A stretch of 64,000 nt of DNA from Candidatus Bathyarchaeota archaeon (GTDB lineage Archaea > Thermoproteota > Bathyarchaeia > Bathyarchaeales > Bathyarchaeaceae), in NCBI GenBank assembly GCA_963697165.1, contig CAVOMX010000017.1:1-64000 (forward strand), given 5' to 3'. Numbering within the stretch: position 1 is the stretch's first letter; each line of letters starts with the position of its first letter. The position numbers and the translations under genes are program-made. This document shows, one piece after another, positions 7,614 through 50,393 of the stretch. Below the pieces are notes generated by a model. The model worked only from the letters and a program-made list of their open reading frames with translations. It made no database searches and had not been told where the DNA came from.

Positions 7614-10600
7614 ATGGCCAGTTGGGACTTTGATTCTATACTTAAGAAAGCAAAAGAACAGGAAGAAAAATATGGCTGGCTATATGCTGCATGGTCCTAT
7701 GAACATGCTCTTCGTTCAAATCCCGAAGATAAATTCTTTATTGCCGAAACCATGCAACAGATAGGTTTTTGCTACAACTTAGCAGCAAGACAATCAGAGA
7801 ATCAAGAAGAATTCAAAAAGTTACAATCATTAGCCGCTGAAACCTACGAGGAAGCAGGCAAAAATTTCGAAAAAATACAAAACAAAAAAAATAAAGGAAA
7901 ACGCGAATATTGCATTGCATTCGCAAATTATCTTAAATATAGACTAGATTCCACTTACGATAACAAAACAAAATCACTTGAAGATTGCTATTCATTAGCA
8001 AAGACAGCTTTGGATCACTTTCAAAATAACGGATATAAAGTGTACATTGGAATGACACTTAATTTAATCCTAGAATGTATTTGGGAACAATTACGGATTG
8101 CTCCAACTGAGGAAGATAAACATGCTTTAACTCAAGAAGCATTGCAGTATTGTAGTGAAGCAATCTCAGTTCTAATAAAGGTTGGAGACCCACATGAATT
8201 ACTTGATGCATATTATTTATCGAGCCTTCACCATTGGTACGCAGCCAACATTAGTGACAGAGAAGAGGCCTGCAACACCTTAGCGCAAATAAGCTTAGAG
8301 TATGCAGAAAAGGCATTAACAATTTCCAAAGAACTTGAAAACCCCTATTCAAAAGCAAACTCACTATTCGCAGCAACATTAACCAATCTATTCTTCACAG
8401 ATAAAACAAAAAATACACTAAATTATGCCCAAAAAATGTTTGAACAAGGAACAATTGTTCATGACAATTACCTAAAGGGAGTATCCTCTTATCTTTTGGC
8501 CTTGGCAACAGATGACCTGGTTCCCATTGAATCTAATCCAGATGAAAAGAAAAAACATTGTGAAGCGATAATTCAATACGCTGAAGAAGGAATCAAATAT
8601 CTTCAAATCATTAATCAAAACGCCTACTTATCAGATACTTATATGGTCTATACTCAAAGTTACTCAACCCTCGCTAGGGAGTTTGCAACAAATCCAATCG
8701 AAAAACTCGAATTCTCAAAAAAAGCAATTGAAATTGGACGAAAAGGACTGGAACATGCTATAAACTCAAGCTCTCCAGATGCTATGGGAGAAAGTTATCA
8801 TGCACTTAGCAAAGCATTACAATATCATTCGATGCTCGTTTATACTAATTCAGAAAAAACAAGAATTCTTCAAGAATCTTTAGAAAATAGAAATCAATAT
8901 ATCAAAATTATTGAAACCGCTCTTCCTTCGAATTATTGGATTCTTGGACTTGGCAAAATATATGCTGCCCAGATCAAAACTGAACTCGCAGATTTAGTAA
9001 ATGACGCTGCTGAAAAAATCTTACTTCTAAAAGAAGCGGCATCTTATTTAGAAGAAGGATTAATTTTTTGTGAAAAATGGATTACCCATCGATCTGAAAC
9101 CACATTAATAGCTACAACTGCAATATTCAAAAACTTGTTTGGTAAACTTTTAGAAAATCTTCATCACTTAGTCCAAGATGAGACTTACCTTCGTAAAGCA
9201 AATGTAGTTTTTGAAGATGCTGCAAAGAAATTCGAAAGAATTAATTCCCCCAACAGAGTTGCTGAAACATATTGGAGAATTGCAAGAAATCAAGATCTTC
9301 TAAGAGAAAGACAATCGTCTGCAAGCAATTTCGCAAAAGCATCTAAAAAATATGAAGAAACTGCTCAACAAATGCCAGCGTTTTCTGATTTTTTCTTTGA
9401 TTACTCATTATACATGAAAGCTTGGAGTGAAATAGAAAAAGCAAAAGACGCACATGATTTAAGACAAAACGCACTTGCGATGAAACATTATAAAAAAGCT
9501 GCAGAAATACTCGAGCAATCAAAAGGATGGGAATTCCTATCTTCTAACTTTCTAGCATGGGCCTATCTAGAACGTGCAGAATTTCAAAGTAGAAAAGAGA
9601 AAAGTGAAAAAGCACTTGAATCCTTCGAAAAAGCAAACAAACTTTTCCGAGAATCTAAAAATTCTCTTCAAGTATTCATGGGGCATATGGAAAATCGTGA
9701 AGAAAGTTATGTAATCAATAAACTAATTGAAGTTTCTGATTTAAGAGGTGCATACTGTTTTGGGCGAATAGCCATTGAAGAAGCCAGAGTCTTTGAAAAA
9801 CAGGGTAACAGTATTGCAGGAGCAGAAAAATATGGCTTTGCCGCAGAGACTTTCCAAAGCATTATTAGCGGTGGATCAGAACAGATCCAAAAAGAGTTAC
9901 AACCAATAATTTATCTATGTAAAGCCTGGCAAAAAATGCGAATTGCCGAAACAAAAAGCTCATCAAAAATTTACGGTGAAGCAGCAGAACTCTTCAAACA
10001 AGCATGTGAACATGCAATTGATCAATCTATGGGCATACTTGCCCTTGCACACAGTAACTTTTGTAAAGCTTTAGAAGCTGGAACCGATTTTGAAATTTCC
10101 AGAGATATAAAGAAATATGCAGAAGCAAAAAAATACTTAGAAATTGCAGCTAGCAATTACTTGAAAACAGGATTTAAGCAAGCAGCTGAATATGCAAACG
10201 GAACACAGCGTCTTTTCGACGCATATGTGTATATTGAAAATGCTAAGATGGAACTAGATCCTGAGAAAAAAACAAAATATTATAGCATAGCTGAAAAAGT
10301 ATTACAGTATTCTGCATTATCTTATTCGAATGCTCAACATCCAGAAAAAACTATACAAGTTTCTCAACTTCTAGAAAACGTAAAAGAAGAAAAAGAACTT
10401 GCCGTGGTCTTAACAGAAATATTACAAGCGCCATCAATTATTTCTTCAACAGAAAACTTTGTAACACCAACACCCTATGAAGAAAATGCAGTAGGTTTAG
10501 AAAATTTTGAAGGCGCAAATATACAAGCAACTATCTCTCAAACTCAGCAAGCTAAATCTGACGAAGACTTCATCCTTGAAATTAACATTGTGAATATTGG

Positions 10601-12248
10601 AAAACAACCAGTTCAAATCTCAAAGATTATTGAAGTAATTCCACAAGGATTTGAATTGATTAAAAAACCCGAGTATAGTCAGTTTGAGGATTCTTCAATA
10701 AATATGAAGAATAAACGACTTGATCCAATGATGACCGAAGAGATACACCTAGTGTTAAGATCACCAAATAAAGGATCCTTTGAGATAAAACCGGAAATAA
10801 CTTACATAAACGAAAATGGAAATCAACTATTATATCAAACAGAACCAACTATAATCGAAATTTCAGAAGTTTCTGTTTTAAATCGTGTTCCTACAGGATA
10901 TGACGAATTAGATAAACTTCTCTTTGGCGGAATACCTGAAACGTATCCTGTTGTTTTGACTGCACCATTTTGTGAAGAGAGAGATCTTTTAATAAAACGA
11001 TTTCTAAAAGCAGGAATTGATAAAGATGAAACCATATTTTATTTTACAGTTAAACAAAACGAATTATTAAAACTTGCACAAGACCCTCAATCAAATGTGA
11101 ACATATTTTTATTCAATCCTTTCCACGATAAAACACTAAAAGAATCTCCCAACATTTTCAGACTAAAGGGCATTGAAAAGTTAACCGATATAAGTATTGC
11201 TTTAACAAAGGCACTTCGTCAAAAAGAAAACCCCAATCACAAAGGTAAACGAGCCTGCATCGAAATTATATCAGATGTTTTGTTGCAGCATAATGCTGTC
11301 ACAACTCGAAGGTGGTTAACCGGTCTGATAAACGAATTAAAGAATCAGAGTTTTACGACTTTGGCTGTTATGAATCCATTAATGCATTCTCCTCAGGACG
11401 TACATGCAATACTTGGTCTTTTTGATGGAGAAATTGCCTTAGAGGAACGAAAAACTTCTAGAGGGTCACAAAAAATTTTAAAAATAAACCGAATGGTTAG
11501 TCAAAAATATCTTCTAACTGAGCTACCAATTAAAAAAGAAAAACTAGCCTTTACATCCACAACAACCGAAAGCACTACAAATTATGTCTCAACAGGATCT
11601 GAAGAGCTAGATAAATTATTGATAGGAGGAATACCTCAAACTTATCCTGTTATACTGACAGCTCCATTTTGTGATGAAAGAGATCTACTAATTAAACAAT
11701 TTATTGAAGGGGGGCTAAAAGAGGGAGACACAGTCTTCTATATGTGTACAGAAATAAGTGGTTTAGAAACTCAAATTAACGAATTTAAATCAGAGTTTTA
11801 TCTGTTTATTTGCAACCCCCAAGCTGACATGTTTATCAAAGATTCGACCAATGTTTTCAAATTAAAGAATGGCGTAATGAGTTTAACTGACATTAATATT
11901 GCATTATCACGGATTATTCAGAAAATAGTGGAATCGACAAGTGGTCCACGAAGAATATGTATTAATTTAGTTTCAGATGTCTTACTCCAGCATCATGCGA
12001 TAATTACAAAAAACTGGTTAACTGGACTAATTGCTGAATTGAGGAGTCAGAATTTTACGACTTTGGTTGTTATGAATCCATTAATGCATTCACCCCAAGA
12101 AGTACAGGCGATACTTGGTCTTTTTGATGGAGAAATTGCCTTGGAGGAACGAAAAACTTCTAGAGGGTCACAAAAAACTCTAAAAATAAATCGAATGTAT
12201 AATCAAAAATATCTTATCAATGAACTACCAATAAAAAAGGAAAAATGA
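7614..12248 (+). CDS. Large TPR-like helical protein with Ig-like domain and two C-terminal degenerate KaiC/RecA-like domains
   Basis: ~950 aa of A/E/K/Y-rich helical repeats, then a beta-rich segment (LEINIVNIGK...IKPEITY). Two (V)PTG..ELDKLL.GGIP domains follow, with Walker A replaced by APFC(E/D)ERD. Confidence 0.8.
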   Translation: MASWDFDSILKKAKEQEEKYGWLYAAWSYEHALRSNPEDKFFIAETMQQIGFCYNLAARQSENQEEFKKLQSLAAETYEEAGKNFEKIQNKKNKGKREYCIAFANYLKYRLDSTYDNKTKSLEDCYSLAKTALDHFQNNGYKVYIGMTLNLILECIWEQLRIAPTEEDKHALTQEALQYCSEAISVLIKVGDPHELLDAYYLSSLHHWYAANISDREEACNTLAQISLEYAEKALTISKELENPYSKANSLFAATLTNLFFTDKTKNTLNYAQKMFEQGTIVHDNYLKGVSSYLLALATDDLVPIESNPDEKKKHCEAIIQYAEEGIKYLQIINQNAYLSDTYMVYTQSYSTLAREFATNPIEKLEFSKKAIEIGRKGLEHAINSSSPDAMGESYHALSKALQYHSMLVYTNSEKTRILQESLENRNQYIKIIETALPSNYWILGLGKIYAAQIKTELADLVNDAAEKILLLKEAASYLEEGLIFCEKWITHRSETTLIATTAIFKNLFGKLLENLHHLVQDETYLRKANVVFEDAAKKFERINSPNRVAETYWRIARNQDLLRERQSSASNFAKASKKYEETAQQMPAFSDFFFDYSLYMKAWSEIEKAKDAHDLRQNALAMKHYKKAAEILEQSKGWEFLSSNFLAWAYLERAEFQSRKEKSEKALESFEKANKLFRESKNSLQVFMGHMENREESYVINKLIEVSDLRGAYCFGRIAIEEARVFEKQGNSIAGAEKYGFAAETFQSIISGGSEQIQKELQPIIYLCKAWQKMRIAETKSSSKIYGEAAELFKQACEHAIDQSMGILALAHSNFCKALEAGTDFEISRDIKKYAEAKKYLEIAASNYLKTGFKQAAEYANGTQRLFDAYVYIENAKMELDPEKKTKYYSIAEKVLQYSALSYSNAQHPEKTIQVSQLLENVKEEKELAVVLTEILQAPSIISSTENFVTPTPYEENAVGLENFEGANIQATISQTQQAKSDEDFILEINIVNIGKQPVQISKIIEVIPQGFELIKKPEYSQFEDSSINMKNKRLDPMMTEEIHLVLRSPNKGSFEIKPEITYINENGNQLLYQTEPTIIEISEVSVLNRVPTGYDELDKLLFGGIPETYPVVLTAPFCEERDLLIKRFLKAGIDKDETIFYFTVKQNELLKLAQDPQSNVNIFLFNPFHDKTLKESPNIFRLKGIEKLTDISIALTKALRQKENPNHKGKRACIEIISDVLLQHNAVTTRRWLTGLINELKNQSFTTLAVMNPLMHSPQDVHAILGLFDGEIALEERKTSRGSQKILKINRMVSQKYLLTELPIKKEKLAFTSTTTESTTNYVSTGSEELDKLLIGGIPQTYPVILTAPFCDERDLLIKQFIEGGLKEGDTVFYMCTEISGLETQINEFKSEFYLFICNPQADMFIKDSTNVFKLKNGVMSLTDINIALSRIIQKIVESTSGPRRICINLVSDVLLQHHAIITKNWLTGLIAELRSQNFTTLVVMNPLMHSPQEVQAILGLFDGEIALEERKTSRGSQKTLKINRMYNQKYLINELPIKKEK

Positions 12249-12319: not shown

Positions 12320-13072
12320 TTATGGTCCAAACAATGTAACATCTGGGAAAATTTCTATTCCAGTTCTATCAATTGTATAGGGTACCAAGTTTGAATTAGT
12401 TTTAGTTCCTCTCATTTTTACTACCTGTAATGCCCTTGAAGTTGCTCCTGAAGAAAATAGTGTCTGCATCAAAATTACTCCATGTGCTTGGTATTCTTCG
12501 ACTGATACTTCACGATCTAAAGTAAGTCGCTGCAATTCAGTTGTTATCAGTGTAGTAACTTTTAATTCTGCTAAAGATTCAATTAAATCTACAATTGCCA
12601 CTCTTCGTTCGATAGGATCAGGAAATCTGTGGAAAAGTGTTGCAAGTGTATCAATTACAACTCTTTTCGCATCTATTTCATCTATTATATTTTCGATTTT
12701 TTCAACTAGTTTATCGATCTGAAGTTGTTTACCCCTTAAGCTTTGGGCTTCTAAATTCATTCTCTCCCTAAGCATAGCTGCCCTTGACATTTTGGTTGCA
12801 TCCAAAAAGGCAAACTTTCCATCTTTTTCTGCTTGTGAAAAATCCCACCCAAAATTCTCCATTTCAGCATAATAATGTTCTTTTTCTTCATCTATACTGA
12901 CAAAGATTCCATTTTCGTTGTAATCGGAAATTCCCTTATATAAAAATTGAGAAGCAAGAGTAGTCTTTCCAGAGCCGGGTCCTCCAACAACTAAAACAAC
13001 TCTTCGCTCTGGGATTCCTCCATTTAGTAATTCATCTAAACCCTGAACTCCTGTTAGCACTAGTTTAGTCAA
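12320..13072 (-). CDS. KaiC/RAD55-like single-domain ATPase
   Basis: Contains TGVQGLDELLNGGIP, intact Walker A GGPGSGKT, Walker B VVIDT and VKMRG. The TTG start at 13072 has an AGGTG SD; the ORF track extends to 13135. Confidence 0.9.
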   Translation of the reverse strand: MTKLVLTGVQGLDELLNGGIPERRVVLVVGGPGSGKTTLASQFLYKGISDYNENGIFVSIDEEKEHYYAEMENFGWDFSQAEKDGKFAFLDATKMSRAAMLRERMNLEAQSLRGKQLQIDKLVEKIENIIDEIDAKRVVIDTLATLFHRFPDPIERRVAIVDLIESLAELKVTTLITTELQRLTLDREVSVEEYQAHGVILMQTLFSSGATSRALQVVKMRGTKTNSNLVPYTIDRTGIEIFPDVTLFGP

Positions 13073-13308
13073 AGTAAAGCACCTTGTCAATGTAAGGAAA
13101 ATTGTATGGCTATTTAAAAATTGTGTGTCTTCCAAATTCCAATTAATTAAAATAATAAAGAAACAAAAAAATCCGATTAACTGTTTGTTTTTGATTTCAT
13201 AAAAATATAGAAATCCTTGTAAATGGAATTAGCAAACCTTGTATTAATAGACCAGAGTTAAGGGCTCGAACCAAAACTTGTTGATACTTACATTTTTGAA
13301 AAAAGTAT

Positions 13309-35948: not shown

Positions 35949-37319
35949 TCATAATGTAGTAATTTCATAACCAGCGTTCTTCCAAGCAATCATACCCCCA
36001 AGCATATTATTGATGTCTTGAAAACCTGCTCGAAGTAGAATACTCGCTGCCAAGCTAGCACGATTTCCCACATTGCACACAACTATGATAGAACGATCTT
36101 TTGGTAATTCTGAAACCCGATTTTGTAGATATCCTGAAAAGATATTAACTGATCCAGGAATGTGACCCTGCTCCCATTTTTCATCTTCTCTAACGTCGAG
36201 TATGAACAAGTCATCTTTTTCGTTTAACCACTTCTTTAATTCTTGCACAGAAATTAAACCAAAATGATCCACAGGTAGGGACTGTTTATACCAGCCTTCT
36301 ATCCCTCCCACAAGATACCCTGTTATGTTATCATAGCCTAGTCTGTAAAGATATCGAGTAGCTTTGTTTATGTAATTTTTGTCCTCCAAAATTAACAGGA
36401 TTGATTTATCGTAAGGCAAAGTCCAACCTGCATATGAGGGAATTCTTTCCAACCAGATATTATACGAGTCTTTCAAGTGAGCACCCCCAAATGATGGAGG
36501 TTGACGAGTGTCAACTACAATAGCGCCTAATTTCATCTGGTTTAAGAATGCTATTGGCATAAGAGGTGAAGGATTTGGTAATTTCGTCAATACTGGTGGT
36601 CCTTCCAGATTGTATTTTTCCATTTTCAAAAAGTAAGGGGGCTGATTATGCCGTTCAGTAATTTTATGTTCTATGAATTCTTCTCTTGTTTTCTGTAAAA
36701 GTGGATTAAAGACCCTTTCTATACCTAACGTGCTTTCCTCTCGTTGACTAATATCGCCTCCACAAACTGATCCGGCACCATGGGCAGGAAAAATAAGCAT
36801 TTCATCTCCTAAAGGTAAAAGTTTGTTGAAAATGCTATTATGAAGTGCTTCAGCTAATCTTGGTGCTTCACTTGGTCCATATAGGTCTGTACGTCCAACG
36901 TCTCCAACAAATAATGTATCTCCAGTAAAAACCATTATTGGTCTTTCGCTTAGGTCTAGATCAGCTAAAGCATAAGACATGCTTTCATCTGTGTGACCAG
37001 GTGTCTCTAATGCAATTAGTTTGATTTTTCCAAAGAAAAATTCTTGTCCATCCTGTAACGATTGGCCATATTTGAAGTCTAGTTTGGATCCATGAAAGAT
37101 CTCCGCCCCTGTGTGTTGCGCCAGTTCAATTGAACCAATTACGTAATCTTCATTGCGGTGTGTTTCAAAAATTCCTTTGATTGTCATCTCTTCTTGCTGA
37201 GCCATATCAATAAAAATTTGGCAGTCTCGTCGGGGATCAATAACCATTGCTTCATTTCCCGAGCCTATGAAATATGAATTGTGAGATAATCCTTCAGACT
37301 TAACTTTTTTAATCAACAT
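35949..37319 (-). CDS. MBL-fold hydrolase fused to two rhodanese domains (persulfide dioxygenase/sulfurtransferase-like)
   Basis: Contains ETHRNEDY, TPGHT, FTGDTLF..DVGR and PAHGAGS.CG. Rhodanese domains follow, with GHIPGS and active loop CNVGNRA. Confidence 0.88.
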   Translation of the reverse strand: MLIKKVKSEGLSHNSYFIGSGNEAMVIDPRRDCQIFIDMAQQEEMTIKGIFETHRNEDYVIGSIELAQHTGAEIFHGSKLDFKYGQSLQDGQEFFFGKIKLIALETPGHTDESMSYALADLDLSERPIMVFTGDTLFVGDVGRTDLYGPSEAPRLAEALHNSIFNKLLPLGDEMLIFPAHGAGSVCGGDISQREESTLGIERVFNPLLQKTREEFIEHKITERHNQPPYFLKMEKYNLEGPPVLTKLPNPSPLMPIAFLNQMKLGAIVVDTRQPPSFGGAHLKDSYNIWLERIPSYAGWTLPYDKSILLILEDKNYINKATRYLYRLGYDNITGYLVGGIEGWYKQSLPVDHFGLISVQELKKWLNEKDDLFILDVREDEKWEQGHIPGSVNIFSGYLQNRVSELPKDRSIIVVCNVGNRASLAASILLRAGFQDINNMLGGMIAWKNAGYEITTL

Positions 37320-37490
37320 AAATAATACCTGTTAATAAATTTACTAAATTAGTATATTAATTATTACATTGACTGGGGAAATCGAAAACAATCATGATAA
37401 TTACCAACTGGAATTTGCTATTATCCCTTGTTATTAGTAGTTTTTTTATATGAAAAAGCTTATTTGAAGAGTCAATTTATAAATTATTCC

Positions 37491-37952
37491 ATGTTTCCAT
37501 TAGGTTTTTTTCCATACATTATAGGTGGAATAATAATAGGAATCGGTGTAAGTCTTATTTACATTGCAACAGGACTTCACGCAACACAAAGCAGTTTCTT
37601 TGATACTACAATATCCTTTTTTTCGAAAAGACCATACTTTCTTCAAAAACAGTATCTCGATTCTAGAGGATGGCGCATCACTTTTGCTCTAGGAGTCATT
37701 GTAGGAGCATTCATTTACACAATAACATTAGCTGCGGAAGGTTTCTTCACAACATCAGTAGAATGGTGGAGACTTGCAATTGGGGGTTTTCTTGTAGGAT
37801 TTGGAACAAGACTTTCAAAAGGTTGCACGTCTGGACATGGTATAAGCGGTTTAGCGTCACTATCTACAACTTCACTTGTTGCTGTAATCACATTCATAAC
37901 AGTTGGAATATTAACTGCCCTTGTTATCCAAAGTCTGGGGGTATTGCCTTGA
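37491..37952 (+). CDS. YeeE/YedE family sulfur-compound transporter subunit
   Basis: Contains GGFLVGFGTRLSKGCTSGHGISG. Confidence 0.88.
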   Translation: MFPLGFFPYIIGGIIIGIGVSLIYIATGLHATQSSFFDTTISFFSKRPYFLQKQYLDSRGWRITFALGVIVGAFIYTITLAAEGFFTTSVEWWRLAIGGFLVGFGTRLSKGCTSGHGISGLASLSTTSLVAVITFITVGILTALVIQSLGVLP

Positions 37953-38353
37953 AATCAAAACATGTTTTTGTGTTTATAGGCGGAATATTCTTTGGTTTTG
38001 GCTTAGCAATAGGTGGAATGTCAAAACAAGAAATCGTTCTAAGCTTTCTGCAATTAAAAGATCTGGGACTATTGTTACTACTTGGCGGATCAGCTCTAGT
38101 AACAGCACTAGCAATAAATCTTGTACCCAAAATTTTAAAAAAACCAATATTAGGTGGCGAATTTAAGAAAAGAACCCGAACATTAACCAAAAGAACAATT
38201 ATCGGCGCAATAATTTTTGGCGTAGGTTGGGGACTCTCAGGTTTATGTCCTGGATCAGCAATGGCAAGTCTCGGAATAGGAAATCTTCCAGCCTTAATCG
38301 GTATTGCCGGTATGTTTCTTGGAGCCTACATAATGGGAAGATACTTTACATGA
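37949..38353 (+). CDS. YeeE/YedE family sulfur-compound transporter subunit
   Basis: TTG start overlaps the previous stop; contains FGFGLAIGGM and IFGVGWGLSGLCPG. Confidence 0.88.
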   Translation: MKSKHVFVFIGGIFFGFGLAIGGMSKQEIVLSFLQLKDLGLLLLLGGSALVTALAINLVPKILKKPILGGEFKKRTRTLTKRTIIGAIIFGVGWGLSGLCPGSAMASLGIGNLPALIGIAGMFLGAYIMGRYFT

Positions 38354-38398
38354 GGTTTGAATAAAATAGTCAATATCTGAATTATTGGCTTTATCAAG

Positions 38399-38752
38399 AT
38401 GAAAAAGGTTGTAGATATTCAAGCTCGGGACTTTGATTATGAAATTAAGTCCAATAATCCGGTAGTAGTCGAATTCTGGATAAAATCGTGTGGTAACTGT
38501 AAAAAATTCAAACCCGTTTATTATGAGCTTTCTGAAATTTTTGCTGACAGATTAAAATTCACCAGAATTAACATGTTTGAAAGTATTGAGAATCTTAGAT
38601 TGGCAGAGGGGCTTGGAGTAGAAGAAACACCAACAACTAAACTATTTCACAAAAGTGAAGAAATTGGAGAGATTATTGGATTTACTACACTAGAAACTGC
38701 AACTGAAGAGATTAAAGCAATTATGAAAAAATCAAGTTGTTGCAAAGAATAG
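38399..38752 (+). CDS. Thioredoxin family protein
   Basis: Contains VVEFW..SCGNC and cis-Pro TPT. Confidence 0.88.
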   Translation: MKKVVDIQARDFDYEIKSNNPVVVEFWIKSCGNCKKFKPVYYELSEIFADRLKFTRINMFESIENLRLAEGLGVEETPTTKLFHKSEEIGEIIGFTTLETATEEIKAIMKKSSCCKE

Positions 38753-38842
38753 TAAATACCTCCGTGATAAAAAAGTAAAAAAAGCTTGCAGCACAATTAG
38801 CTTTTAATCTTTTGAATTCAATAGTTAATTTGGGATAATTTT

Positions 38843-40291
38843 ATGTCCAAGAGTATGAATTTAACAATTTTACAAATAAATGACACCCATAGCTACTTTG
38901 AATTGCACAATGAACTATACTGGGTTGGACATAGAGCAAGCCATAAAAAATCCGGAGGATACGCAAGAATTTCCACTCTTTTTAAAGAAATAAGAAACGA
39001 AAAAAATGGAAAAGTGATTACGTTAGATAACGGAGATACAATTCATGGTACATTTCCTGCAGTGAATAGTAAAGGTGAAGCATTAATTCCCATATTGAAT
39101 GAATTAGCTATAGATGCAATGACGGCGCATTGGGAATTTGCATACGGTCCAGATAACTTTAGAAACATAGTCAATAAGCTCAATTTTCCAATGATAGCAA
39201 TTAATTGTTATGAAAAAGAAACGAACAAACTTGTTTTTTCCCCTTTTCACATAATAGATATTGAGGATCTGAGGATAGGAATTATTGGGATTTCGGCTAC
39301 AATTGTGGATAAAACAATGCCTAAACACTTCAGTAAAGGTATTTACTTTACTTTGGGAAACGAAGAATTACCTATATACATTAAGAAACTCCGGGAAAGT
39401 GAAAAAGTAGATCTGATTATTGTTTTGTCTCATTTGGGATACCCACAAGAACTCAAGCTAGCTAAAGAAGTTGGTGGAATAGACGTTTTGTTAAGTGGAC
39501 ATACTCATAACCGTCTTTATGAAGCAGTAGTTGTAAATGGTAGCATAATAATGCAATCGGGTTGTCATGGTTCTTTTGTTGGCAGATTGGATCTTGAAGT
39601 GAGGAACGGTAAGATTCATAAATTTCAGCATAAATTAATCAATGTTGATGAAACAATAAAACCTGACCCAAATGTTGATTGTTTTGTCAACAAAGCTTTA
39701 GATAAACATCGAGATATGTTAAATCTTGTTGTAGGAAAAACCAAAACTATCCTTAATCGATACCACGTAATGGAATCTACAATGGATAATTTTTTACTCC
39801 AAACTCTGATTAAAGTTAGTGGAAAAAAAATTGCATTTTCTAATGGATGGCGTTACGGAGCGCCTGTTCTGACTGGATACATAGTAATGAATGATCTTTG
39901 GAACATCATTCCCACTAATCCAAAAGTTTCAATTTGTAATATTAGTGGAGCAGAGCTTTGGGATATGATGGAAGAGAATCTGGAACATACATTTTCTTGT
40001 GACCCATACAAACAAATGGGGGGTTATGTGAAAAGATGTTTAGGTCTAAACATTTATTTCAAAGTAGAAAATCCTGAGGGAAAGAGAATTCAAGAGTTTT
40101 TTGTAAATGGAAAAAGGGTGAATAAGTCAAAAATGTATAGCACATGTTTTGTGACAACCCAAGGTGTTCCAGAGAGATATGGCAAAGATCGGGAAAGCCT
40201 GGAGATTAATGCAATAGATGCTCTTGAAGAATATTTAGAAAAAAATAAGTTAGTTTCTGCAGAATTAAGAAGAACAATAGTACCAATTTAG
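38843..40291 (+). CDS. 5'-nucleotidase-family metallohydrolase, SoxB-like
   Basis: Contains NDTH, DNGD, TAHWEFAYG, SHLG, LSGHTH, SNGWRYG and FSCDPYKQMGG; no signal peptide. Confidence 0.8.
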   Translation: MSKSMNLTILQINDTHSYFELHNELYWVGHRASHKKSGGYARISTLFKEIRNEKNGKVITLDNGDTIHGTFPAVNSKGEALIPILNELAIDAMTAHWEFAYGPDNFRNIVNKLNFPMIAINCYEKETNKLVFSPFHIIDIEDLRIGIIGISATIVDKTMPKHFSKGIYFTLGNEELPIYIKKLRESEKVDLIIVLSHLGYPQELKLAKEVGGIDVLLSGHTHNRLYEAVVVNGSIIMQSGCHGSFVGRLDLEVRNGKIHKFQHKLINVDETIKPDPNVDCFVNKALDKHRDMLNLVVGKTKTILNRYHVMESTMDNFLLQTLIKVSGKKIAFSNGWRYGAPVLTGYIVMNDLWNIIPTNPKVSICNISGAELWDMMEENLEHTFSCDPYKQMGGYVKRCLGLNIYFKVENPEGKRIQEFFVNGKRVNKSKMYSTCFVTTQGVPERYGKDRESLEINAIDALEEYLEKNKLVSAELRRTIVPI

Positions 40292-40405
40292 AAACACTAA
40301 ACTATAGTTGAAGCTGATTGAATATCACTTTCCAATTTGCTACTTAGCTTAAGATTCCATTTGAATTACAAGCCAAAACTCAAATAATCAAAGGAGGAGC
40401 TGAAA

Positions 40406-40810
40406 ATGAACGAAATTAATGAACAAGAAGTTCTAGCAAAAATCCGTACCTTATTAGCTTTAGAAAGAAATTATCTTGCAGAAGAAAGGACTGCAATGGC
40501 TGAATTTAGAAACGGTTTGGCACTTATAGTTATTGGTCCTACAGTGATTACAATAATAGCATATACATTGTCAGTTTTTACTGTAGAAAAATCAATTTTT
40601 TTGGATGTATTAAATTTTGCATTTTTTGGTATATTATCGATTGTTGGAATATGGATAAGTTTTCGTTCACAATCCAAATTAAGGATAATTAGGAAAAAGA
40701 AGGCAAATATTAAAAATCGAACAATTGAAATTAGTAAATCCTCTAAAGAAATCTACAATCTTCTATGTGATTGTTTAGACGATAATGATGAGGACGGCAA
40801 TCTTCTCTAA
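40406..40810 (+). CDS. DUF202 (YidH-like) membrane protein
   Basis: Contains RNYLAEERT.MA.FR.GLA and two TM segments. Confidence 0.8.
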   Translation: MNEINEQEVLAKIRTLLALERNYLAEERTAMAEFRNGLALIVIGPTVITIIAYTLSVFTVEKSIFLDVLNFAFFGILSIVGIWISFRSQSKLRIIRKKKANIKNRTIEISKSSKEIYNLLCDCLDDNDEDGNLL

Positions 40811-40913
40811 TTTTTTCACAGGACAAGATTGTGAATAGCCAAAGCATTAAGCTTGCATTTGGAAACTCGATTTAACTAATAATTAGGTATTAATGCAATA
40901 TCAATCACTAAAG

Positions 40914-42197
40914 TTACCAAGAACCAAATAATATCCATGCAAAGATTAATGTAAGAATTAGATTTAGTGATTGGCCTACAATATATAATTGGACTGGTTT
41001 ACCCCCGGAAATCTGGGTTTTAAGGGTTTTAAAGTCTGTTTCTAATCCTATACTCAAAAAGGCAATTGCAAAAAGAAACGTTCGAATGCTTCCTGTTAAT
41101 TTAAGGATGTTAGTTGACATCACTTCGCCCATTATGGGTAGGACTACAAATGAAGAGAGTATTGAAAGAAAGGCGAATCCAATTATAAATTTTGGAAATC
41201 TATACCAGATCTGAATTAGACCTGGTTTATCGTTTGAGGTTTTATCAATCTTTGTGACCCATAGAAATGCAATAACAAATGCTATTAGTGCAATCATAAC
41301 GTTTTGAATGAGTTTGATTACTGTGGCTACTTCCATTGCTTCTTCTCCCAGCAATTCTCCTGCAGCTACAACCGCACCGGTTGAATCAACGGTCCCCCCG
41401 ATCCAAGCTCCACCAACTATAAAGTCCATTCCCGTAAGTCTAATAAGAGTAGGTAGACCAACCAGCAGTATTACTGTGGATATTAAGGAAATTGAAATTG
41501 TTAATGTCAGAAATTCCTTTCTAGCTTTAGTTGCTGCTGCAACCGCTATAGCCGCAGATACTCCACAAACAGAGGTTGCAGCTGACATTAAGACTGTTAG
41601 TGTTTTATCCATTTTAAGAACAGATGTGCCATATTTGTACATAAGAAATAAGACGATGGGTGTTACTCCCCAGGCAAGCAATAGACCTTGTATTCCCAAA
41701 TTTAATATTTGGGAAAATAAAATTTCAGCGCCTAATAACACTAATCCTATTTTTATGTACAATTCTGTTTTTATTGCAGGTATTAAAAAATCGGGTACAC
41801 CGATTGTGTTGCTGATTATTAATCCAATAATTAATGCCCAAAGAACGTATTCCAAACCATAAGTTCCAATGAATGATTGTTTAGATATTACTTGGGCAAC
41901 TAATCCTAAAACCGAAAATATGAGAAAGGCAGGAATAAAAGTCGACAATTTACCTTGAATCGATTTGATAGCTATTGAAAGAATGATAAGTAGAATAAAT
42001 GTCAAAAAAAGATAGGAAATAAACCCATCTGTAGAAAATGAGTTAAAAGGATTTGTAACCCATAGATTTGGCTTAGGCACGGTAGTAATTATTCCTAATA
42101 AAGTGACCCCAAAAAGAATTAATCCCAACCAAACTGTCCACCAATCTTCTGACTTTCTTAAAGCTAAAAAAAGGGTTTTTAAAGATATGCTAATCAC
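40914..42197 (-). CDS. YeiH / putative sulfate exporter family transporter
   Basis: Contains SVCGVSAAIA, GAWIGGTVDSTGAVVAAG, KLIQN and RFPKF. Confidence 0.88.
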   Translation of the reverse strand: MISISLKTLFLALRKSEDWWTVWLGLILFGVTLLGIITTVPKPNLWVTNPFNSFSTDGFISYLFLTFILLIILSIAIKSIQGKLSTFIPAFLIFSVLGLVAQVISKQSFIGTYGLEYVLWALIIGLIISNTIGVPDFLIPAIKTELYIKIGLVLLGAEILFSQILNLGIQGLLLAWGVTPIVLFLMYKYGTSVLKMDKTLTVLMSAATSVCGVSAAIAVAAATKARKEFLTLTISISLISTVILLVGLPTLIRLTGMDFIVGGAWIGGTVDSTGAVVAAGELLGEEAMEVATVIKLIQNVMIALIAFVIAFLWVTKIDKTSNDKPGLIQIWYRFPKFIIGFAFLSILSSFVVLPIMGEVMSTNILKLTGSIRTFLFAIAFLSIGLETDFKTLKTQISGGKPVQLYIVGQSLNLILTLIFAWILFGSW

Positions 42198-46543: not shown

Positions 46544-46996
46544 ATGTTCGAAGATCAAATAGACAAAATTATCGATAAGTATGAGAACGAAAAAGGTATT
46601 TTGATTCAATTATTACTCGATATTCAACACGAGTTTCGTTGGATACCAAAGGATGCAATAACAAGAATAAGTGAGAGGCTCAAGATTCCCTACAGTCAAA
46701 TATTTAGGGTTGCAAGTTTTTACACTGGACTGAGTCTCAAACCTATAGGTCGTCATCTTATTAGAGTATGCGTTGGTACTGCTTGTTATGTTCGAGGAGG
46801 ACCGAGAATTCTGGATGCCGTAGAGAATAAATTAGGGATAAAATCTGGCGAGACAACAAGTGACAATAAGTTCAGTTTAGAGACAGTAAATTGCTTAGGT
46901 TGCTGCGCCTTGGGGCCAGTTATGGAAATTGATGGTCAATATTTTGGAAAGCTCAATTCCGCAAATCTTGAGAAAACACTCTCTAACTATAATTAA
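46544..46996 (+). CDS. NuoE/HydC-like 2Fe-2S subunit
   Basis: Contains VASFY, CVGTAC and CLGCCALGP. Confidence 0.93.
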   Translation: MFEDQIDKIIDKYENEKGILIQLLLDIQHEFRWIPKDAITRISERLKIPYSQIFRVASFYTGLSLKPIGRHLIRVCVGTACYVRGGPRILDAVENKLGIKSGETTSDNKFSLETVNCLGCCALGPVMEIDGQYFGKLNSANLEKTLSNYN

Positions 46997-47014
46997 CAGG
47001 AGAAATGAAAAGTA

Positions 47015-48949
47015 ATGAAACCGTTAAAATCTTCTTCTGATCTGGAAAAACTCCGAAAAAAGATACTTGACAAAAAAGATCCTAAGAGGATAACTATCTC
47101 AGCATGCGTAAGTACTGGTTGTAAAGCTCTTGGCGCCCAAAAAGTCCTTGAAGCTTTCAATGTAGAACTCAAAAAACAGGGCCTAGACAGAAAAGTAGAT
47201 ATTAAAGAAACAGGTTGCCTAGGTTTCTGCGAAAAAGGTCCTAGAATAGTTATCTATCCTGAAGAAATTTACTATTTCCAAGTAGACGCAAAAGATGTAC
47301 CAGAAATCGTATCGAAGACTTTGATCAACAATGAAATTGTTGAAAGGTTACTTTACACTGATCTGATTACTGGCGAAAAAGCACGCTATCTGTCTGAAGT
47401 TCCATTCTATAAGTATCAGAACAGGCTTCTTTTGGAGAGCAATAGTAAAATCGACCCTAAAAAGATAGAGGATTACTTATCGATAGGTGGTTATGCAGCA
47501 TTAGCAAAAGCTCTTTTTCAAATGACACCTGAGGACGTAATGAATGAAGTTAAGGAATCCAAACTTCGCGGTCGGGGTGGAGGCGGTTTCCCAACTTACA
47601 TAAAGTGGGAATCTACCCGTAAGGCACCAGGAGAGCCCAAATATGTTATTGTAAACTGCGACGAAGGCGATCCGGGAGCCTTCATGAACAGGGCGTTGAT
47701 GGAAGGAAATCCACATTCAATTCTTGAGGGCCTTATCATAGGAGCTTATGCAATAGGTTCGGATGAGGGATTCCTTTATGTGCGTCAAGAGTATCCACTC
47801 GCAGTTGAGAACATGGAAATAGCCATTAAAGAAGCAGAAAAGATGGGACTTTTAGGTGAAGACATACTAGGTTCAGGATTTAACTTTAAGGTTAAGATCC
47901 ATAAAGGGGCAGGCGCTTTTGTGTCTGGCGAGTCAAGCGCTCTGATGACTGCAATAGAAGGAAAGGTCGGTGAACCAAGACCTAAATATGTCCACACATC
48001 TGAAAAAGGAGTCTGGGATAAGCCAAGCACACTGAATAATGTCGAAACATGGGCTAACATACCCCCTATAATCAATAATGGTGCTAAATGGTTTGCATCA
48101 ATTGGTACCGAAGCCAGCAAAGGCACCAAAATATTTGCTTTAGCCGGCAAAGTAAACAACACTGGTTTAGTTGAAGTTCCTTTCGGCATTTCATTAAGAG
48201 ATATCATATTCAAAATTGGTGAAGGAATCCGGGATGGAAAGCGATTCAAGGGTGTTCAAACTGGGGGTCCCTCTGGAGGCGTCATCCCTGAGCAGCACTT
48301 AGATTCTCCCGTTGATTTTGATGAACTCACCAAGCTAGGTTCAATGATGGGTTCTGGCGGGATGATCGTAATGGACGAAGATACCTGCATGGTAGAACTA
48401 GCCCGTTACTTTGTAAACTTCTTATGCGATGAATCTTGCGGAAAATGCACACCTTGTCGGGAAGGATTGAGGCAAGCTAGTATAATCTTAAACAGGATCG
48501 TTAGCGGTAAAGGAACAGAGGATGACATAGATAAGCTTGGAAAAATTGCAGAGGTAACCCGCGTTGCTTCCCTATGCGCTTTAGGACAAACATCTGCAAA
48601 TCCCTTGTTAACCACTCTTCGATACTTCAAAAACGAATACGAAGTACACATAAATGAAAAAAGATGTCCATCATTAGTCTGTAAAGACCTGATATCCTAT
48701 TATATTGACCCTGAAAAGTGTCAGGCCTGCATGATTTGTTATAGGAACTGTCCAACGAATGCGATAATCGGGGAAAAGATGAAAATTCACATCGTTGATC
48801 AATCAAAATGCATCAAATGTGGAAGCTGCTATGACTTATGTCCACCCAGATTTAAGGCAGTAAAAAAAATATCTGGTGAAGCGGTTCCACTACCCATTCC
48901 AGAAGAAGAGAGATTGGTCACGAGATTAAGGAAGGAGAAGCGGGACTAG
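47015..48949 (+). CDS. NuoF/HydB-like NAD(H)/FMN subunit with extra Fe-S domains
   Basis: N-terminal C-x4-C...CLGFC, GRGGGGFP, DEGDPGAFM, GGPSGG, CGKCTPC, H..EKRCP..VC and two C-terminal 4Fe-4S motifs. Confidence 0.93.
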   Translation: MKPLKSSSDLEKLRKKILDKKDPKRITISACVSTGCKALGAQKVLEAFNVELKKQGLDRKVDIKETGCLGFCEKGPRIVIYPEEIYYFQVDAKDVPEIVSKTLINNEIVERLLYTDLITGEKARYLSEVPFYKYQNRLLLESNSKIDPKKIEDYLSIGGYAALAKALFQMTPEDVMNEVKESKLRGRGGGGFPTYIKWESTRKAPGEPKYVIVNCDEGDPGAFMNRALMEGNPHSILEGLIIGAYAIGSDEGFLYVRQEYPLAVENMEIAIKEAEKMGLLGEDILGSGFNFKVKIHKGAGAFVSGESSALMTAIEGKVGEPRPKYVHTSEKGVWDKPSTLNNVETWANIPPIINNGAKWFASIGTEASKGTKIFALAGKVNNTGLVEVPFGISLRDIIFKIGEGIRDGKRFKGVQTGGPSGGVIPEQHLDSPVDFDELTKLGSMMGSGGMIVMDEDTCMVELARYFVNFLCDESCGKCTPCREGLRQASIILNRIVSGKGTEDDIDKLGKIAEVTRVASLCALGQTSANPLLTTLRYFKNEYEVHINEKRCPSLVCKDLISYYIDPEKCQACMICYRNCPTNAIIGEKMKIHIVDQSKCIKCGSCYDLCPPRFKAVKKISGEAVPLPIPEEERLVTRLRKEKRD

Positions 48950-48959
48950 AGGAGCGTGA

Positions 48960-50393
48960 ATGAAGATGGAAAGAAGCGAAAAAGAAATCACGTTGAAGAT
49001 AGACGGGAATGAAGTCAATGCCAAAGAAGGAACATCCATTTTTGATGTAGCAAAAACAGTTGGTATTACGATTCCTACGCTCTGTCATAATACTGTTCTT
49101 GAGCCTTTTGGTGCTTGCCGTGTATGTTCGGTGGAAATAACGGACAAGCGAGGAAGGAAAAAGATTGTGACTTCATGCAATTACCCTGTATTTGAAGGAC
49201 TCATTGTTGACACAAAATCTGAGAAAGTATTCAGAACGCGTCAATTGCTCCTTGAGTTGTTACTTGCTCGCTGTCCAAATGCTAAAAAGATACAGGATTT
49301 AGCGCGGGAATATGGCGTTGAGACGCCGAGCTTTTGTGTAGTAGACCCAGAAGAGGATTGTATCCTCTGTGGCTTGTGTGCTCGTGTTTGTGAAGAAAAA
49401 GTTGGCGTATCTGCAATCAATTTTGCGAATCGAGGCGTAGAACGAGAAGTCACATCTCCATATCACACGATATCTGATGATTGCGTGGGATGTGGCGCAT
49501 GCGCTATCGTCTGCCCTACAGACTCAAAAAAAGTTAGAATAAACACCTATCCCATGCTGGAAGAGGACATTAAGGAAGCAGAAAAGAAGTTTCTGAACGG
49601 AACAAAAGACGAATTTTTGGGCGTTTACACCGAGCTTTTTGCAGCAAAAAGTTCTATTGATGGCCAAGATGGAGGAATGGCTACTGCTTTGCTCCTTTCG
49701 GGATTTGAGAAGGGATTGTTTGATGCTGCTATTGTCGTTAAGCGAACAGTTGGATATAAAGCGGAGGCAATTATTGCTGAAACTGCTGATGACATACTGA
49801 ATGCACGAGGAACTAAATATTCAAGAGTTAAAATGATGTCAAAAGTAGGGGAGCTAGTGGAAAAAGGGAAAAAGAGAATAGCTATTGTTGGTACGCCATG
49901 CGAGGTTCGAACAGGAAGAAAAATTCAGCAACAACTACTAAGTAAATACCCCGACCTAGAGATTACCATCGTAGGATTGTTCTGCTTTGAAGCCTTCGAT
50001 TACGACAAACTGAAAGAAGAAATAAAGAGGTTCTTGGGTGTTGATTTGGACAAGGCTGAAAAAACTCAGATACAGAAAGGAAAATTTATAGTTCGAATTG
50101 GTGAAAACGAATACTCTGCAAAGGTGAAAGAATTTCACGATGCTATTCAGGGCGGATGCGCTTACTGTAATGATTTTGTTGCCCGACTTGCCGATGTTTC
50201 AGTTGGTTCAGTAGGAAGCAAGGATGGATATTCAACAGTGATAGTTAGGTCGGATAAAGGAAAGAAGCTTCTGGAAAATGTTGACTTCGTTAAAGGAGAT
50301 TGTAACAAAGAAGACGTGATAAAACTAGCGGATTTCAAAAAGAAAAGAGCGGACAAAAACTTTTCTCCAATTATTAAAGGGACACAGAAGTAG
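48960..50393 (+). CDS. Fusion of HydA/NuoG N-terminal Fe-S module with F420-binding FrhB-like domain
   Basis: Fe-S part: IPTLC...GACRVC...SC, CILCGLC and CVGCGAC. FrhB part: GQDGG..TALL, VGTPC, GLFCFE, GCAYCNDF and DVSVGSVGS. Confidence 0.88.
   Translation: MKMERSEKEITLKIDGNEVNAKEGTSIFDVAKTVGITIPTLCHNTVLEPFGACRVCSVEITDKRGRKKIVTSCNYPVFEGLIVDTKSEKVFRTRQLLLELLLARCPNAKKIQDLAREYGVETPSFCVVDPEEDCILCGLCARVCEEKVGVSAINFANRGVEREVTSPYHTISDDCVGCGACAIVCPTDSKKVRINTYPMLEEDIKEAEKKFLNGTKDEFLGVYTELFAAKSSIDGQDGGMATALLLSGFEKGLFDAAIVVKRTVGYKAEAIIAETADDILNARGTKYSRVKMMSKVGELVEKGKKRIAIVGTPCEVRTGRKIQQQLLSKYPDLEITIVGLFCFEAFDYDKLKEEIKRFLGVDLDKAEKTQIQKGKFIVRIGENEYSAKVKEFHDAIQGGCAYCNDFVARLADVSVGSVGSKDGYSTVIVRSDKGKKLLENVDFVKGDCNKEDVIKLADFKKKRADKNFSPIIKGTQK

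Follow-up and report, generated by a model that had tools for sequence, protein, structure and literature searches.

An island of seven genes lies at positions 35949–42197 of the window, by which we mean the whole 64,000-nucleotide stretch of DNA analyzed here (positions 1 to 64,000 of contig CAVOMX010000017.1, assembly GCA_963697165.1, from Candidatus Bathyarchaeota archaeon). At its center is a gene for a cytoplasmic dimetal hydrolase related to SoxB, accompanied by genes for a split sulfur-compound transporter, a thioredoxin, a CstB-type rhodanese fusion, and a putative sulfate or sulfite exporter. We give about an even chance to the reading that this is a mobile, accessory island for defense against, or scavenging of, sulfane sulfur, in which the cytoplasmic enzyme would free sulfate from polythionates or S-thiosulfonated thiols. 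The island is a variant on known sulfur-handling islands, and its hydrolase belongs to a clade of non-exported SoxB relatives.

The residues of the hydrolase carry most of its assignment. All seven metal ligands (D14, H16, D65, H96, H197, H220, and H222) align with those of SoxB, and W97 and R337 match the SoxB Trp and Arg when compared with the Allomeiothermus, Paracoccus, and T. thermophilus enzymes. The motifs AHWEF (residues 95–99) and DPYKQMGG (387–394) are present, confirming the original prediction of HWEF in place of the 5′-nucleotidase GNHEF, together with DPY.Q.GG. When aligned with the nucleotidase UshA, H117 is replaced by W and D120 by A, and R375, R379, R410, F429, and D504 are also replaced; F498 is retained, as F436. 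Trp175 of SoxB is placed at the substrate channel in a review (PMC9774590). With the ligands, Trp, and Arg of SoxB retained and the His-Asp pair of nucleotidases gone, the hydrolase is not a standard nucleotidase.

Profile and fold comparisons point the same way, so that the claim of a SoxB-like rather than nucleotidase-like enzyme held across sequence, profile, residues, and fold. By sequence, T. thermophilus SoxB ranks first among solved relatives (E 3.8e-42), with the best nucleotidase at 7.4e-32, and the SoxB profile TIGR04486 scores 344.8 bits against 118.7 for UshA. This score is below the curated TIGR04486 cut-off of 550, leaving the protein outside that family, and its Pfam call is Metallophos plus 5_nucleotid_C. 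The predicted structure (predicted local distance difference test, 94.7) matches SoxB best, with a template modeling score of 0.93 against at most 0.87; in a fold comparison, SoxB gave Z 43.6 (root mean square deviation 1.9 Å over 476 residues), compared to 41.1 and 2.4–2.7 Å for nucleotidases. The residue mapping is more telling for the assignment than the fold match. Most plausibly, the hydrolase works like SoxB yet stands outside the SoxB family.

As had been predicted from the lack of a twin-arginine translocation (Tat) signal, the enzyme appears cytoplasmic: no signal peptide was found in it, residue 13 already begins the first metal motif, and the hydropathy of the N-terminus does not rise above −0.16. 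The 120 closest proteins carry HW[ED]F in 116 cases, S[NH]GWR in 120, DPxxQxGG in 115, and QSGCHG in 116, and among the same 120 neither GNH[ED] nor a Tat motif was found. QSGCHG is specific to the clade and lies downstream of the last metal ligands, at residues 238–243 (window 39554–39571); Cys241 is present in 92% of 85 rows and His242 is invariant. The hydrolase thus shares with SoxB (TIGR04486; T. thermophilus 2WDC–2WDF and 4UWQ) the two-domain fold, the His-type ligand set, the HWE Trp, the Arg, DPxxQxGG, and its side of the tree. It differs in lacking both the Tat signal and an insertion of ~40 residues after the first metal motif, in forming a separate clade with the extra QSGCHG, and in having no soxXAYZ alongside (0 of 80 loci). 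With the 5′-nucleotidases UshA and CD73 it shares the superfamily fold and Pfam domains, but it has no GNHEFD, a His instead of the Asn ligand, and replacements at most substrate residues, and it is not exported.

Two trees, a quick one of 59 rows (taken from the 102 full-length rows that remained once 9 fragments had been set aside) and a careful one of 26 rows, agree on groups. The non-exported hydrolases form a clade at 100/99, and canonical SoxB is separate at 100/100, although with only 4 rows. SoxB, the hydrolase clade, and three sister groups (one from Bacilli, one of exported GNW enzymes, and a single haloarchaeal row) split from the nucleotidases at 99/97, in trees that are rooted at the midpoint only and do not settle the branching order within the SoxB-side branch. 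The phylogeny against SoxB and UshA that the original prediction had proposed therefore sets the hydrolase on the SoxB side, and a grouping with nucleotidases was not found.

One sister lineage has genetic evidence behind it. In Erythrobacter flavus 21-3, deletion of “soxB” (D0Y83_01365) blocks conversion of tetrathionate to sulfur, with no SoxYZ involved (PMC7608252). The corresponding type of locus was sought with published primers (PMC7608252; PMC9426585 supplement). A first primer scan of metagenomes gave no match; metagenome locus L127 was then found to match nine E. flavus primers with at most one mismatch each. Its enzyme, near-identical to the E. flavus “SoxB,” begins with a signal-like stretch, carries GNW in place of HW, and is 28–29% identical to the window hydrolase. 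We considered the E. flavus enzyme as a member of the window clade and rejected it, as the L127 copy falls in the sister exported clade, apart from the window clade (100/99). L127 ends short of the E. flavus paralogues 01405 and 01435; a plasmid search for them gave one unrelated 78% match, and none of 400 sampled Alphaproteobacteria matched at 1e-60, the sole match being the center genome, at 32%. The two systems share independence from SoxYZ, as seen in the TsdA-SoxB-Sdo pathway of E. flavus (PMC7608252), and sister positions in the tree, and L127 is also a similar island, with an MBL dioxygenase, a split yeeE, DsrE, and SulP. The E. flavus pathway differs in needing TsdA and aerobic respiration (PMC7608252), and TsdA was not found in this genome (81% complete). 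Evidence for S-SO3 hydrolysis exists for two lineages in these trees, and the window clade lies between them. Separately, loci L083 (16165–23094) and L058 (7001–10775) hold islands with two to three different paralogues of the SoxB/nucleotidase fold, an exported GNW type, the cytoplasmic window type, and a third type, with GNHD, whose place is among the nucleotidases; this echoes the three E. flavus paralogues.

The genes of the island are as follows.

35949–37319, minus strand: CstB-type fusion of a metallo-β-lactamase (MBL; persulfide dioxygenase fold), a pseudorhodanese, and a rhodanese; 456 aa; Pfam PF00753 and PF00581.
37491–37952, plus strand: yeeE-a, one half (PmpA-type) of a split transporter for sulfur compounds, YeeE/YedE family; 153 aa; C-terminal half of PF04143, E 4.5e-16; GCTSGHG Cys motif.
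37949–38353, plus strand: yeeE-b, PmpB-type half, DUF6691; 134 aa; PF20398, E 1.5e-18, and N-terminal part of PF04143; GLCPG Cys motif.
38399–38752, plus strand: thioredoxin with CGNC active site; 117 aa; PF00085, E 4.2e-17.
38843–40291, plus strand: cytoplasmic SoxB-related dimetal hydrolase; 482 aa.
40406–40810, plus strand: DUF202-like two-helix membrane protein; 134 aa; PF02656 borderline at 23.2 bits (cut-off 23.4); two hydrophobic segments.
40914–42197, minus strand: yeiH, putative sulfate or sulfite exporter of the YeiH/PSE family; 427 aa; PF03601, E 6.4e-50; ~12 hydrophobic segments.

All seven genes lie as first described, with the MBL-rhodanese-rhodanese gene divergent from the yeeE-yeeE-thioredoxin-hydrolase-DUF202 run, and two details of that description changed. 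The divergent spacing is 171 bp, and the gaps along the plus-strand run are −4, 45, 90, and 114 bp, with yeeE-b beginning at a TTG inside its 4-bp overlap with the yeeE-a stop. The YeiH-family exporter said to follow is present (99 bits to TIGR00698, under the cut-off of 232.6), but is encoded on the minus strand and points toward the main run, and so falls outside the same transcript. The two yeeE genes are also present, but one corresponds to the C-terminal half of YeeE and the other to its N-terminal half, so that the pair most likely makes up a single split transporter of the PmpA/PmpB type rather than two. PmpA/PmpB is known as a split YeeE arrangement (PMC11582611), and, like the Serratia type, the genes here are two short ones with one conserved Cys each; they differ in being coupled to a thioredoxin and the hydrolase, with substrate and direction putative. 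A Hyphomicrobium YeiH homologue was induced 526-fold by thiosulfate (PMC11582611). The DUF202-like gene is accessory to the island, because the same island in a same-genus genome lacks it, and the thioredoxin gene is retained at related loci L004, L005, L145, L165, and L168. A conserved swinging-arm Cys at a C-terminus was looked for in the island and not found, and the terminal CC of the thioredoxin is missing in L004 and L145. A sigma-70 promoter scan gave 17 sites against 27 in shuffles, with a model unsuited to archaea. One metatranscriptome, sharing 5% of sequence words, yielded four short contigs; three match the MBL and yeiH genes at ≥99%, and no contig falls in the hydrolase gene.

Gene neighborhoods were examined across the family. 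At least 563 relatives occur in species genomes, and neighborhoods were scored within 7 kb in the best 80 loci (52–84% identical, archaea and bacteria), using search seeds from outside these loci. At least one sulfur-handling neighbor is present in 35 of the 80, and at least two in 14. Among unrelated metagenome loci, 0 of 52 have such a neighbor, and among windows cut from this genome, 5 of 118. Among loci of at least 10 kb the count is 27 of 57, against 0 of 23 controls; with some seeds taken from the tested loci, the overall count is 37/80. The clustering of sulfur genes around the hydrolase is not chance, and 12 named phyla contribute to it. The partners change from locus to locus: DsrE at 19 of the 80, rhodanese and MBL at 10 each, PmpA/PmpB at 8, TsdA at 7–9, thioredoxin at 2–3, TauE at 2–6, SulP at 2, and YeiH at 1. 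Linkage to sulfur-handling genes, as originally predicted, thus stands across phyla, as a changing set with yeeE at 8/80 and MBL-rhodanese at 10/80, and neither of the refuting outcomes named in the original prediction was seen. Neither SoxY nor SoxZ was found at any of the 80 loci, and SoxZ occurs in 3 of 39 carrier genomes, many of them incomplete. Near-complete islands are found on plasmids of Novosphingobium (pSA3), Pontibacter (Paks1, with three paralogues), and Hymenobacter; a Bradyrhizobium plasmid has the hydrolase with rhodanese and TauE neighbors, and a Bosea plasmid copy has no clear sulfur neighbor. Sister hydrolases of the Bacilli group adjoin cst-like operons on Sporosarcina and Cohnella plasmids.

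Several of these neighborhoods have features of their own. The hydrolase adjoins a small DsrE gene, downstream in Methanoculleus (L027, L034, L049, and others) and upstream in Thermoplasmata (L008, L017, and L026), and for cultured strains this DsrE is the strongest carrier candidate. Genes for a TsdA-like cytochrome and two further c-type cytochromes lie ahead of the hydrolase gene in Nitrospirota, Bacteroidota, and Desulfobacterium (L066, L067, L073, L074, and L077). An Ignavibacteriales locus (L065, 3553–4827, minus strand) encodes a YeeE/DUF6691-rhodanese fusion adjoining the hydrolase, with a Gly-Gly-Cys tail that resembles the SoxY carrier arm and could be a built-in carrier. A member of the same class as the host (L169, 2958–7992) has the hydrolase and MBL-rhodanese next to TauE, FdhD, a ThiF/MoeB protein, and MobA, a context that hints at sulfur supply for molybdenum cofactors.

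The guanine-plus-cytosine (GC) content of the island is 34.7% against 41.4% for the genome, in the lowest 2% of 318 windows. A hydrolase orthologue is present in 1 of 24 same-genus genomes, 0 of 36 other genomes of the family or order, and 8 of 300 genomes of the class; 5 of 8 other class members have sulfur neighbors, in shuffled gene order. The same-genus carrier, G019, has the whole island apart from the DUF202-like gene, ~3 kb from an integrase gene. The low GC, patchy distribution, and nearby integrase argue that the island is accessory and probably mobile, a sulfur-gene set probably borrowed by the host archaeon. The whole island also occurs on a contig labelled Promethearchaeati (L004, 2444–8696), at 81–95% protein identity and nearer than G019, a match that reflects either recent transfer or a mis-binned contig.

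The host itself fits the anaerobic archaeon first proposed: formylmethanofuran dehydrogenase (fwd)-like genes and mch in the window, and the Bathyarchaeota and Thermoproteota labels of named close homologues, point to an anaerobic Bathyarchaeia genome. The absence of soxAXYZ was borne out in the window and extends to the genome, where searches of the genome (81% complete) found no SoxY, SoxZ, or SoxA/TsdA domains, in keeping with the predicted independence from Sox. No sulfite reductase domain was found in it either, and the genome appears unable to reduce sulfate or sulfite. Elsewhere in the window, a 1544-aa protein with KaiC-type ATPase domains (7614–12248) faces a separate KaiC-like gene (12320–13135), and a run of NuoE-like, NuoF-like, and 2Fe-2S/4Fe-4S-FrhB fusion genes (46544–50393) may encode an F420- and NAD-linked oxidoreductase. 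Elsewhere in the genome, two near-identical blocks on different contigs (C12, 192947–198036; C14, 111490–116110) each carry a single-domain rhodanese.

The MBL-rhodanese fusion aligns over its full length with PDB 3tp9 (E 2e-71) and 3r2u (E 5e-51), the latter being staphylococcal CstB. It has the iron triad H54/H109/D134, the loop C186-G187, and the rhodanese C415 with R377 and R420. Compared with the catalytic positions given for CstB (PMC12934615), all are kept except H58, which holds the axial water and is Asn56 here (HRNEDY). The HRNE[D] form is present in 120 of the 120 closest fusion homologues, and the HRNED form in 8 of 18 aligned rows, all from archaea, Chloroflexota, or WOR-3. The fusion looks like a CstB-type persulfide enzyme and not a passive carrier. 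It shares with Staphylococcus aureus CstB the persulfide dioxygenase-pseudorhodanese-rhodanese architecture, the iron triad, the loop Cys-Gly, the rhodanese Cys, and the two Arg, and differs in the His58-to-Asn change, the anaerobic archaeal host, and an island without CstR or SQR. As CstB needs O2, the fusion would act in this host either as a detoxifier during exposure to oxygen or as an altered sulfur transferase.

The genes, the residues, the clade, the lack of a signal peptide and of Sox partners, and the linkage are observed; the chemistry at every step, and the direction in which sulfur compounds are carried, we infer. Reactive sulfur oxyanions (tetrathionate, trithionate, thiosulfate, or polysulfide) would enter the cell or, going by the transporter family, cross via PmpAB. 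Tetrathionate would add -S-SO3 to protein and small-molecule thiols; it directly forms Cys S-thiosulfonates on DsrE3A and TusA and is toxic in the cytoplasm (PMC8551704). DsrE and TsdA belong to the more frequent neighbors of the hydrolase. Going by its active site and its place in the tree, the hydrolase may then cut the terminal S-SO3 of S-thiosulfonates or free polythionates to sulfate and persulfide. SoxB hydrolyzes free trithionate, and a conjugate or adduct must have a minimum length to reach the metals (PMC5336275). Thioredoxin would reduce the persulfide, giving usable sulfide, or the CstB-type enzyme would clear it, and YeiH would export the sulfate or sulfite that the genome appears unable to reduce.

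Several points weigh against this reading. The fold margin over closed nucleotidases is just 2.5 Z units, and fold does not show function. The genome has no TsdA, so tetrathionate must come from outside, and the minimum conjugate length of SoxB sits poorly with an island that has no conserved swinging-arm carrier. Across the family, 45 of the 80 loci have no sulfur neighbor within 7 kb, including 19 of 28 in Methanobacteriota and 10 of 12 in Bacillota, and many loci are close kin (such as Methanoculleus) and so not independent. The thiosulfate-induced cluster of E. flavus also encodes two other paralogues that resemble SoxB, and deleting them left sulfur formation unchanged (PMC7608252). No activity data for the window clade were found in the open-access literature covered; the “SoxB” of PMC3512248 is an unrelated oxidase subunit, and PMC7887784 has no soxB.

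The original prediction had proposed another route, which we think improbable: import of thiosulfate, its loading on rhodanese as S-thiosulfonate, hydrolysis to sulfate and persulfide, reduction by thioredoxin, and assimilation. Transporter, rhodanese, thioredoxin, and hydrolase genes are indeed adjacent here and in L004, L005, L145, and L168, and the YeeE-family TsuA imports thiosulfate for assimilation (PMC11582611). However, loading thiosulfate on Cys is an oxidation, performed by SoxAX, and with no SoxAX/TsdA-type oxidant in this genome thiosulfate cannot be loaded in this way. Rhodanese/TusA-type proteins instead give persulfide and sulfite, as when the TusA-like TsuB splits thiosulfate with no need of a hydrolase, and Hyphomicrobium PmpAB is unresponsive to thiosulfate (PMC11582611). 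With what looks like a CstB-type enzyme in place of a passive carrier, and a rhodanese fusion at only 10 of 80 loci, the proposed chain of uptake, loading, and hydrolysis is unsupported, the loading step in particular. The CstB-like fusion suggests a different role for the hydrolase, as its partner in an O2-consuming persulfide detoxifier for an anaerobe. Exposure to O2 and sulfide would S-sulfonate the loop Cys, and the hydrolase would free the stuck sulfonate or thiosulfonate as sulfate. CstB does form -SO3 and -SSO3 adducts on a flexible loop (PMC12934615), every catalytic position but H58 is kept, and the hydrolase and MBL genes sit side by side in various arrangements (L001, L012, L043, L079, L168, and L169). 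Against this, CstB itself resolves the adduct to thiosulfate (PMC12934615), SoxB rejects the short S-sulfonate of SoxY (PMC5336275), and the MBL neighbor is missing at 70 of 80 loci, leaving this role unlikely.

The hydrolase could also be a phosphoesterase, nucleotidase, or other hydrolase with a secondary sulfur link, acting for example on adenosine 5′-phosphosulfate, 3′-phosphoadenosine 5′-phosphate, or thio-nucleotides. Its Pfam call, its TIGR04486 score under the SoxB cut-off, the 45 of 80 loci in which it stands alone, and the alignment of UshA F498 with F436 would all suit such an enzyme. The tree sets it apart from nucleotidases at 99/97, though, and the UshA catalytic His-Asp pair and most of the nucleotide-binding residues are replaced, so we regard this as a poor prospect. 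Least probable, in our view, is a thiosulfate hydrolase that converts S2O3 and water to sulfate and HS−, a one-enzyme disproportionation yielding sulfide without a reductant. The reaction is mildly exergonic, at about −22 kJ/mol. A SoxB crystal has thiosulfate in the site (title of 2wde), an importer and a sulfate exporter flank the hydrolase here, and the family is common, often alone, in methanogens and other anaerobes. Yet frequent pairing with TsdA (7–9/80) points to tetrathionate, and in the cited papers we found no SoxB-type enzyme reported to turn over thiosulfate.

The hydrolase family is large and tight, and no characterization of it was found in the literature covered. If S-SO3 hydrolysis is indeed its activity, many anaerobes, including cultured Methanoculleus, would process polythionates by an unrecognized route. 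Database labels for clade members are “SoxB” or “5′-nucleotidase,” and with such mixed labels, soxB-based counts of sulfur oxidizers in anoxic sediments may be inflated. A second oddity is the CstB-like dioxygenase, whose change from His to Asn is fixed in anaerobe lineages. A bolder version of the sulfate-releasing reading, which we hold as doubtful, would make the enzyme a cytoplasmic, carrier-free S-SO3 hydrolase of anaerobes (methanogens, Bathyarchaeia, and fermenters), working with an importer and a sulfate exporter to turn polythionates or thiosulfate into sulfide and sulfate with neither reductant nor Sox, and with the HRNED variant of CstB as its anaerobic partner. If true, the sulfur cycle of sediments would have a branch that has so far stayed hidden.

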